NCBI RefSeq assembly: GCF_003334305.1
Contig: NZ_QOWS01000006.1
DNA: 64,000 bases
DNA from: Escherichia coli
GTDB lineage: Bacteria > Pseudomonadota > Gammaproteobacteria > Enterobacterales > Enterobacteriaceae
Reading direction: 5' to 3' (one strand)
Of the stretch, positions 48,901 through 51,668 are shown one piece after another. How positions within the stretch are numbered: the stretch's first letter is position 1; every line of letters starts with the position of its first letter. The position numbers were made by a program.

Positions 48901-51668
48901 ATATCGTGGCACGTACCATGCGCATCATCGATACCAATATCAACGTAATGGATGCCCGCGGGCGAATTATCGGCAGCGGCGATCGTGAGCGTATTGGTGA
49001 ATTGCACGAAGGTGCATTGCTGGTACTTTCACAGGGACGAGTCGTCGATATCGATGACGCGGTGGCACGCCATCTGCACGGTGTGCGGCAGGGGATTAAT
49101 CTACCGTTACGGCTGGAAGGTGAAATTGTCGGCGTAATTGGCCTGACAGGTGAACCAGAGAATCTGCGTAAATATGGCGAACTGGTCTGCATGACGGCTG
49201 AAATGATGCTGGAACAGTCGCGGTTGATGCACCTGTTGGCGCAGGATAGCCGTTTGCGGGAAGAACTGGTGATGAACCTGATTCAGGCTGAGGAGAATAC
49301 TCCCGCACTTACTGAATGGGCGCAACGGCTGGGGATCGATCTCAATCAACCGCGAGTAGTGGCTATTGTTGAGGTCGACAGCGGTCAGCTTGGCGTGGAC
49401 AGCGCAATGGCGGAGTTACAACAACTGCAAAATGCGCTGACTACGCCCGAGCGTAATAATCTGGTGGCGATTGTCTCGCTGACCGAAATGGTGGTGTTGA
49501 AACCGGCGTTGAACTCTTTTGGGCGCTGGGATGCAGAAGATCATCGTAAGCGAGTTGAACAACTGATTACCCGCATGAAAGAGTATGGCCAGCTGCGTTT
49601 TCGCGTTTCGCTGGGCAACTATTTTACCGGTCCTGGCAGTATTGCCCGATCCTATCGTACGGCGAAAACGACGATGGTGGTGGGTAAACAGCGGATGCCA
49701 GAAAGTCGCTGCTATTTTTATCAGGATCTGATGTTACCTGTGTTACTCGACAGTTTGCGTGGCGACTGGCAGGCCAATGAACTGGCGCGACCGCTGGCGC
49801 GGCTGAAAGCGATGGACAATAATGGCTTGCTGCGACGAACGCTGGCGGCGTGGTTTCGCCACAATGTGCAACCGCTGGCTACGTCAAAGGCGCTGTTTAT
49901 TCATCGTAATACTCTGGAGTATCGGCTTAATCGTATATCGGAACTGACCGGGCTTGATTTGGGTAATTTTGATGACAGGTTGCTGCTGTATGTGGCGTTG
50001 CAGCTGGATGAAGAGCGGTAGGTTATGCGTTAAGGTCGAGGCGGCGCTGGCTCATTCCCCTCAGCCCGAAGGGTAGAGGGGAATGTCCGAGTTAACCGTC
50101 AGTTCGGCATTATTTACGCGTTAGTTTTTCCAGATCGGCTTCAATCTCGCTGATCTTATTGGTTACGACTGACTCCAGGTGACGTAAGTCGTCGAGGATC
50201 TTACGCTTAAGATCAACTTCGCTGCGGTCACGCTGGCAGATTTGATCAAGCTCATCAATGATATACCGTAGATTCGGGCTGATTTCCTGGACTTCTTTAT
50301 AACCCTGACCCACACCATCAGCGACGACCGTTTTACGCTGACGCGGATATTTAAACTTAACGCTCTTGGCGAAAAACTCGCCTTTGTCTTTCTGGAAATA
50401 GATTTTCAGAATATCGTTGTTGGCTTCCTGCCGGAGGCTGTAACGATCAATTTCTTCAGGATTGGTAATACCCAGACTTTTCAGATTGTCGTACATAGCG
50501 TTACCTCAAAATGAGTCAGTAAATTGTGCTTATTTTAGCATTTGGCCTGGCCCGCCCGGCTCGACTGTGATCGCAGAAAGCCTTTTTCTTCCAGACTTCT
50601 ATCATGGCGTAAAAATCAAAAAATTACCTGCTTTATTGTGGCGATATTCCATGGGATGGATTAACACATTTATCTTCGTTTTGCGAATTACATGACAGTC
50701 CGAAACAAGATGAAAAAGTATTTAAAAAAGGGGGGAAGAAGAATGAGTAGGACGAATTATTCTGAGCCAGAAAGCATACGGGCAGCATCATGCTGCCCGT
50801 ATATGTACTCTTAATCGATGGTACGCAGCAGTTCGTTAATGCCGACTTTGCCGCGAGTTTTCGCGTCAACTTTCTTAACGATAACCGCACAGTAGAGGCT
50901 GTATTTGCCATCTTTCGACGGCAGATTACCTGAAACAACCACAGACCCCGCCGGAACGCGACCGTAGTGGATTTCGCCGGTTTCACGGTCGTAAATACGG
51001 GTGCTCTGACCAATGTATACGCCCATAGAGATGACGGAACCTTCTTCGACAATCACCCCTTCAACCACTTCGGAGCGTGCGCCAATGAAGCAGTTATCTT
51101 CAATAATGGTCGGGTTAGCCTGCAGCGGCTCCAGCACGCCGCCGATGCCCACGCCACCGGAAAGGTGGACGTTTTTACCAATCTGCGCACAAGAACCGAC
51201 GGTCGCCCAGGTATCAACCATCGTGCCTTCATCAACATATGCGCCGATGTTGACGTAAGACGGCATCAGCACGGTGTTACGGGCAATAAATGCACCCTGA
51301 CGTACCGCCGCTGGTGGCACAACGCGGAAGCCTTCTTTCTGAAAACGCGCTTCGTCGTAGTCGGCGAATTTCATCGGCACTTTATCGAAGTAGCGGCTTT
51401 CTGCCCCTTCGATCACCTGATTATCATTAATACGGAAAGAGAGCAGCACCGCTTTTTTCAACCACTGATGCGTCACCCACTGACCGTCAATTTTTTCCGC
51501 TACACGCAGTGCGCCGGAATCCAGCAGGGCGATCACCTGATTTACCGCTTCGCGGGTTACGGTGTCTGCATTGGCTGGCGTGATCTCGGCACGGCGTTCA
51601 AAAGCGGTTTCAATAATGTTCTGTAACTGCTGCATTGTTAAACTCTTTTCATATCAGTAAACACATCA

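Follow-up and report, generated by a model that had tools for sequence, protein, structure and literature searches.

Organisation of the yaeH–dapD gap

The stretch of DNA analysed here (the window; 64 kb) is a segment of the E. coli chromosome in which the ORF list gives the gene order dgt-degP-cdaR-yaeH-dapD-glnD-map. The gap between yaeH and dapD spans 50497..50810 and measures 314 bp. It is bounded on the left by yaeH (50110..50496, minus strand), which codes for a DUF3461 protein according to the ORF list and the annotation of genomes with an identical locus, and on the right by dapD (50811..51635, minus strand; ORF list), the product of which is 100% identical to K-12 DapD. An initial annotation of the window had placed yaeI at this position in K-12 and had described the gap as lacking it, and both statements are borne out: yaeI (813 nt) sits between yaeH and dapD in K-12/C600 and BW25113, whereas tblastn with K-12 YaeI finds no match in the entire 64-kb window and the ORF list holds no YaeI-like ORF, that is, no metallophosphoesterase of ~270 aa, within the 314 bp. 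The minus-strand ORF at 50633..51052, which had been set aside as a shadow running into dapD, is indeed out of frame with that gene. There is likewise no recombinase scar, a search of the window for FRT and loxP (34 bp) that tolerated as many as 3 mismatches returning 0 matches.

The previously reported G-tract is present on the plus strand as an A6G6 purine tract, AAAAAAGGGGGGAAG, at 50724-50738. It is a homopolymer run of variable length, and in an alignment of nine yaeI-less spacers CFT073 and ST131 differ by 3 and 5 nt in the length of the tract. These indels shift the frame of a 40-aa plus-strand ORF (50692..50814), which is thus not conserved; together with the differing sequence of strain BS-04 at this point, they led us to reject it as a small gene. 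The sole RNA match in the gap is to sroE (Rfam RF00371), which involves the hairpin only and at 22.3 bits (E = 0.017) falls short of the gathering score, 51, and a scan of 50000-51000 for sigma-70 consensus promoters gave no match. The gap today works as plain intergenic DNA, with the dapD terminator hairpin on its dapD side and the probable yaeH promoter and leader on its yaeH side.

The hairpin, which the initial annotation had also pointed out, is a stem-loop, ACGGGCAGCAtcaTGCTGCCCGT (50778-50800, minus strand), that starts 10 nt past the dapD stop codon, has a stable GC-rich stem and is common to yaeI-bearing alleles, being kept in K-12, E. albertii and Escherichia sp. MOD1-EC7003. Folded as dapD-sense RNA it reaches -25.1 kcal/mol (z = -4.85; 0 of 200 shuffles fold as well), and its K-12 counterpart reaches -19.3 kcal/mol. 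The sequence that follows is UAUGCUUUCU in the window and AUUUUUUUG in K-12, so that the U-tract is full in K-12 but interrupted in the window, and a consensus terminator scan of the minus strand left the hairpin site unflagged. Judged from the sequence, the interrupted U-tract may weaken termination of dapD.

At the opposite end, the 150 bp at 50497..50646 (minus strand) probably hold the yaeH promoter and leader. This block is 99.6% identical to K-12 and is common to yaeI-plus and yaeI-minus alleles. A constitutive RpoD promoter has been reported for yaeH in the K-12 yaeH–yaeI spacer (PMC3946193). The leader shows 0-2 differences among phylogroups, as against 5-13% divergence at 4-fold sites, and in Escherichia sp. 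E1V33 it has diverged by 3.3%, as against 27-37% at flanking 4-fold sites. It is homologous to the yaeI–yaeH spacer of Superficieibacter, where it lies downstream of yaeI, and it is apparently linked to the cassette described below. A GC-rich stretch, GAGCCGGGCGGGCCAGGCC, falls within 50497-50646, and TGCTAAAAT, at 50532-50540 on the minus strand, resembles an extended -10 element. The combination of conservation, homology with Superficieibacter, GAGCCGGGCGGGCCAGGCC and the -10-like TGCTAAAAT suggests a regulated yaeH leader.

Breakpoints relative to K-12

When the window is aligned with K-12 by blastn, homology extends from yaeH through 50646 (99.6%) and resumes at the hairpin from 50779 (97.2%). 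Between these breakpoints lie 132 bp in the window (50647..50778) and 845 bp in K-12, the latter made up of the yaeI coding sequence with 21 nt on one side of it and 11 nt on the other. The K-12 yaeH-yaeI-dapD locus (b0163-b0166) therefore has the flanking genes, the dapD hairpin and the yaeH leader in common with the window, but carries yaeI (NCBIfam NF008460 equivalog, 528 bits) where the window has unrelated DNA.

The 132-bp segment diverges by 4-7% among phylogroups, and we see no sign of a gene in it. It is not a decayed yaeI, as DNA local alignments against seven yaeI-bearing spacers stayed within the shuffle null and, in translated comparisons, the best match among 120 YaeI-family proteins (P0015, 21.6 bits) was equalled by 6 of 60 shuffles. 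Its 20 nt nearest yaeH (50647-50666) belong to the fossil of a second gene, orf236, which is treated below. The segment as a whole is not an orf236 remnant, since support is confined to the 20-21 nt adjoining the shared block; local alignment of the last 120 nt of orf236 with the rest of the segment gave p = 0.08-0.47 against dinucleotide shuffles. The 132 bp also produced no matches to the odd spacers and other loci that were compared with it (L016, L057, L065, L096-L105). Some 110 purine-rich nucleotides (50667-50777) are in consequence traceable neither to yaeI nor to orf236 nor to any fetched locus, which argues that the event was no simple deletion. By this comparison the window state is best described as a replacement and not as a clean excision.

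Distribution of the two alleles in E. coli

The frequency of each state was surveyed in 5426 complete E. coli genomes, in 5425 of which the locus was found. The 132-bp segment is present in 3339 of the 5426 (61.5%) at 93-100% identity, and the yaeI segment in 2084 by megablast or 2085 by distant blastn (~38%), a search that reached down to ~65-70% identity and detected no diverged yaeI copy elsewhere in these 5426 genomes. Because the two counts together account for all but two genomes, the alleles are alternatives. The window allele is the ordinary majority state in E. coli, and K-12 is a minority reference. The initial annotation had allowed that its placement of yaeI would be wrong if K-12 and most E. 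coli had the same spacer; most E. coli do share it, but K-12 has yaeI.

The reference strains sampled represent phylogroups A, B1, B2, E and F. The yaeI-less type is found in IAI1 (B1), IAI39 and SMS-3-5 (F), CFT073 and ST131 (B2) and O157:H7 (E), and yaeI in K-12 and BL21 derivatives (A), O111:H8 (B1) and O145:NM. The flanking genes of the window are essentially identical to those of IAI1, and a 701-bp locus identical to that of the window is shared by many independent isolates of natural origin, taken from humans, animals and water in diverse countries. The two states thus occupy one site between the same flanks in many isolates, with no second copy of yaeI, as a natural presence/absence polymorphism does. 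K-12 is not typical of E. coli between yaeH and dapD, and a gene that is missing relative to K-12 need not have been deleted in the strain under study. The feature is real, natural and ordinary, and matters little alone.

E. coli BS-04 (L004, 1698-1994) shows a third, less frequent form of the yaeI-less spacer, which measures 297 bp. The 28 nt that it lacks take in most of the extension of the orf236 fossil, and it contains a pyrimidine-rich stretch that is different. Genomes that fall in the 80-95% identity bands of the locus survey may carry a spacer of this type.

A passage in Leimbach et al. (2017; PMC5422975) counts yaeI among the variable orthologous groups and reports its enrichment in phylogroup A, in agreement with its presence in K-12 and BL21 and its absence from our B2, E and F reference strains. 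That passage does not refer to breakpoints, to the 132-bp replacement or to orf236. The accessory status of yaeI is hence already known, and the detail added here is that the deletion is unclean and that orf236 was lost as well.

K-islands and O-islands are the strain-specific replacement segments of K-12 versus O157:H7 genome comparisons. The locus resembles them in having two unrelated sequences at one site between conserved flanks, with O157:H7 carrying the window-type allele. It differs in being tiny (132 versus 845 bp), in being without mobility genes and in being traceable to partial deletions of one cassette.

yaeI where it is present

All 10 of the 10 yaeI alleles examined are intact, and dN/dS values of 0.10-0.31 place them under purifying selection. 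In the comparison of K-12 with E. albertii, dS is 0.66 for yaeI and 0.42-0.80 for cdaR, yaeH, dapD and glnD. Where present, the gene looks vertically inherited and functional, which fits a long residence at the site and not a recent arrival. YaeI is the NCBIfam phosphodiesterase YaeI equivalog, and has a twin-arginine (Tat-like) N-terminal motif just below the domain cut-off. Named close relatives outside Escherichia are few, namely those of Pseudocitrobacter (68%) and Superficieibacter (64-65%), the next-closest named homologues being proteins of verrucomicrobial MAGs at 45-56% identity. In Superficieibacter yaeI likewise lies between dapD and yaeH.

Two local anomalies were observed among yaeI-bearing E. 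coli. A BL21 derivative and K-12 (L088 and L095, both phylogroup A) have dS values of 0.146 for yaeI and 0.145 for dapD, 0.014 for cdaR and 0 for yaeH, a pattern that indicates a local patch of old divergence covering yaeI and dapD, with recombination at the locus. Strains 2009C-3133 and KKo009 (L089 and L003) diverge from other E. coli by 9.3-9.6% in yaeH and 13% in yaeI, and by ~3-4% in cdaR, dapD and glnD; here yaeH-yaeI looks like a segment imported from a divergent Escherichia lineage.

orf236 and its fossil

In MOD1-EC7003 a 236-aa ORF (orf236) follows 14 nt past yaeI and ends within the 150-bp yaeH leader; several lineages have orf236 immediately behind yaeI with this 14-nt spacing. The arrangement dapD-yaeI-orf236-yaeH is seen in E. 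coli GF43, some E. albertii and MOD1-EC7003, and GF43 is the only one of the 5426 complete E. coli genomes with orf236, yaeI also being present. One further contig (L100; YaeI 69% identical) has yaeI-orf235-yaeH, its dapD side being cut by the contig end. An Enterobacter-like lineage has orf236 without yaeI (dapD-orf245-yaeH), and there the hairpin is followed by the CAGGGAT motif that is found upstream of K-12 yaeI. The coordinates of orf236 are 2172-2882 in locus L016, 3001-3708 in L101/L102 and 2501-3211 in L106. The family matches nothing in Pfam, NCBIfam or PADLOC, and the idea that the lost cassette was a defence system was dropped, PADLOC matching neither YaeI nor orf236. Its repeated occurrence beside yaeI gives this uncharacterised protein family a conserved genomic partner. 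A 38%-identical homologue elsewhere (L105) adjoins relaxase, NikA-like and HTH_17 genes.

The C-terminus of orf236, CEPVPWGIA[KR]IKQVIF, is near-invariant, in homologues that are otherwise 55-61% identical. When orf236 homologues were used as tblastn queries, the window yielded the 3′ end of the gene at 50616..50666 (minus strand), which reads C*SIPWNIATIKQVIF followed by a stop codon and is identical to the conserved C-terminus at 11 of 16 residues. The in-frame TAA inside it (50661-50663) means that the fossil is not expressed as protein. K-12 retains only ITRIKQVIF, or 9 codons of the orf236 end; the window retains 16 codons, 7 more. Over the 21 nt that lie beyond the share of K-12, 14-15 of 21 positions match Escherichia orf236 in exact collinear register, a score equalled by at most 1 of ~6000 other offsets. 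The match is thus collinear and lies where the end of orf236 would be expected, and a disabling mutation is present, as in a pseudogene remnant. The distal 31 nt of the yaeH leader (50616-50646) overlap it, so that the conserved leader starts inside the former coding end of orf236.

Since more of orf236 survives in the window than in K-12, and of the two only K-12 has yaeI, neither allele is the parent of the other. The two common E. coli alleles would then be independent deletion derivatives of a two-gene yaeI-orf236 cassette.

The site in other genera and species

An outgroup set of 80 loci around YaeH, with one genome per species, was used to examine the site more broadly. Among these loci, all genera other than Escherichia for which the contig covers both genes (Citrobacter, Klebsiella, Enterobacter, Raoultella, Kluyvera, Cedecea and Kosakonia among them) have dapD and yaeH 109-125 bp apart and lack yaeI; only two loci that carry other insertions, and one that is degraded, depart from this pattern. 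This compact spacer of ~110 bp resembles the window in its gene order and in having a dapD terminator followed by a yaeH promoter. It differs in that the terminator is canonical (GCGGG...CCCGC, then a T-run), and it can be aligned with the Escherichia spacer only over the ~14 nt that immediately precede the yaeH start. The occurrence of the compact spacer in more than 70 species outside Escherichia implies that the yaeI-orf236 cassette is itself an insertion.

Within Escherichia, yaeI is carried by the E. albertii type strain, E. whittamii, MOD1-EC7003 and a strain that bears the label E. coli but is ~10% divergent. The spacer of Escherichia sp. E1V33 is yaeI-less and 94.6% identical to that of the window, despite the deep divergence of the flanking 4-fold sites given above. 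This contrast suggests that alleles cross species by recombination, which would blur any polarity read from the tree. Polarity within Escherichia is in any case read here from few species, a set without the type strains of E. fergusonii, E. marmotae and E. ruysiae and without Salmonella.

The dapD–yaeH spacer has apparently taken up insertions repeatedly. In Enterobacter wuhouensis (L057, 461-2749) it contains a 762-aa ORF on the opposite strand, and in Enterobacter sp. BIGb0383 (L065, 2355-3000) ~650 bp with a 57-aa lipoprotein-like ORF.

Origin of the yaeI-less allele

We consider it probable, with good confidence, that the 314-bp gap is a common natural yaeI-less allele of E. coli that descends in three steps from a two-gene cassette. 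Before Escherichia split into its species, an accessory cassette of yaeI and orf236 would have been in place, with the dapD terminator on one side of it and the yaeH promoter on the other. One deletion would then have taken orf236 and left yaeI only, giving the K-12 type, and a separate, larger deletion or rearrangement would have taken yaeI together with most of orf236, giving the window type. The latter would retain both ends of the cassette, that is, the dapD hairpin and the last 16 orf236 codons running into the yaeH leader, with the purine-rich filler of ~110 nt between them. The order of the deletion events is our inference. Of the two origins that the initial annotation had offered, an old deletion is favoured over a lineage that never had yaeI, and the absence is natural as proposed; the deletion was not the clean one envisaged, as 845 bp are replaced by 132 unrelated bp and two genes would have been lost. 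It counts against this history that the fossil extends past the K-12 share by only 21 nt.

The same observations can be read in the reverse direction, with the yaeI-less spacer being original in Escherichia and yaeI, with or without orf236, inserted later in some lineages so as to displace the 132 bp. Such an origin would accord with the lack of yaeI at this site in most Enterobacteriaceae, with the majority status of the yaeI-less allele in E. coli, and with the scarcity of enterobacterial YaeI relatives, for which verrucomicrobial MAGs come next, as might follow from horizontal acquisition. We nonetheless think it unlikely. A stop-interrupted orf236 fossil that is longer than that of K-12 is unexpected in a spacer with no past cassette, the window has both the hairpin and the 150-bp leader by which the cassette is bordered elsewhere, and the dS of yaeI between species is in line with its neighbours. 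A history that keeps the cassette and dispenses with a single two-gene deletion is that yaeI was lost first and orf236 decayed later. An orf236-only state such as this calls for does exist in the Enterobacter-like lineage, with the CAGGGAT motif kept, and the remnant in the window derives from orf236 and not from yaeI; but no allele of that kind was seen in any Escherichia, and the sole orf236-containing genome among the 5426 of E. coli has yaeI too, so that we judge this route quite unlikely. An engineered deletion or an assembly artefact would have nothing to recommend it besides the difference from K-12 and is extremely improbable, given that the identical 701-bp locus recurs in many natural isolates, that 3339 complete genomes carry the allele and that no FRT or loxP was found.

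The cassette-deletion history leaves room for a further reading of what has maintained the variation. Five states of the spacer can be distinguished (yaeI plus orf236, yaeI only, orf236 only, fossil only and the compact spacer), and it is conceivable, though in our estimation doubtful, that they make up an old multi-allelic accessory locus which is kept polymorphic by selection or by frequent recombination between species, and not by neutral loss. If this were so, the ~110 nt and the weakened U-tract might alter the transcriptional coupling of dapD and yaeH in the majority allele.

Variation beyond the gap

Differences were also observed on the other side of yaeH. In Superficieibacter and a relative (L096, 5619-8579; L097, 5711-8671) a gene for a 986-aa M60 peptidase/mucin-binding protein lies between yaeH and cdaR, and in CFT073 (L091, 974-1432) an IS200C transposase lies between degP and cdaR; the window has neither. 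The convergent cdaR–yaeH spacer (50022-50109) is dimorphic too. In the window, K-12 and O157:H7 it is 88 bp long and contains the inverted repeat CATTCCCCTC (50053-50062) / GAGGGGAATG (50076-50085), and the spacer of CFT073, ST131, IAI39, SMS-3-5 and GF43 is unrelated to it, measures ~53 bp and forms a hairpin of its own.
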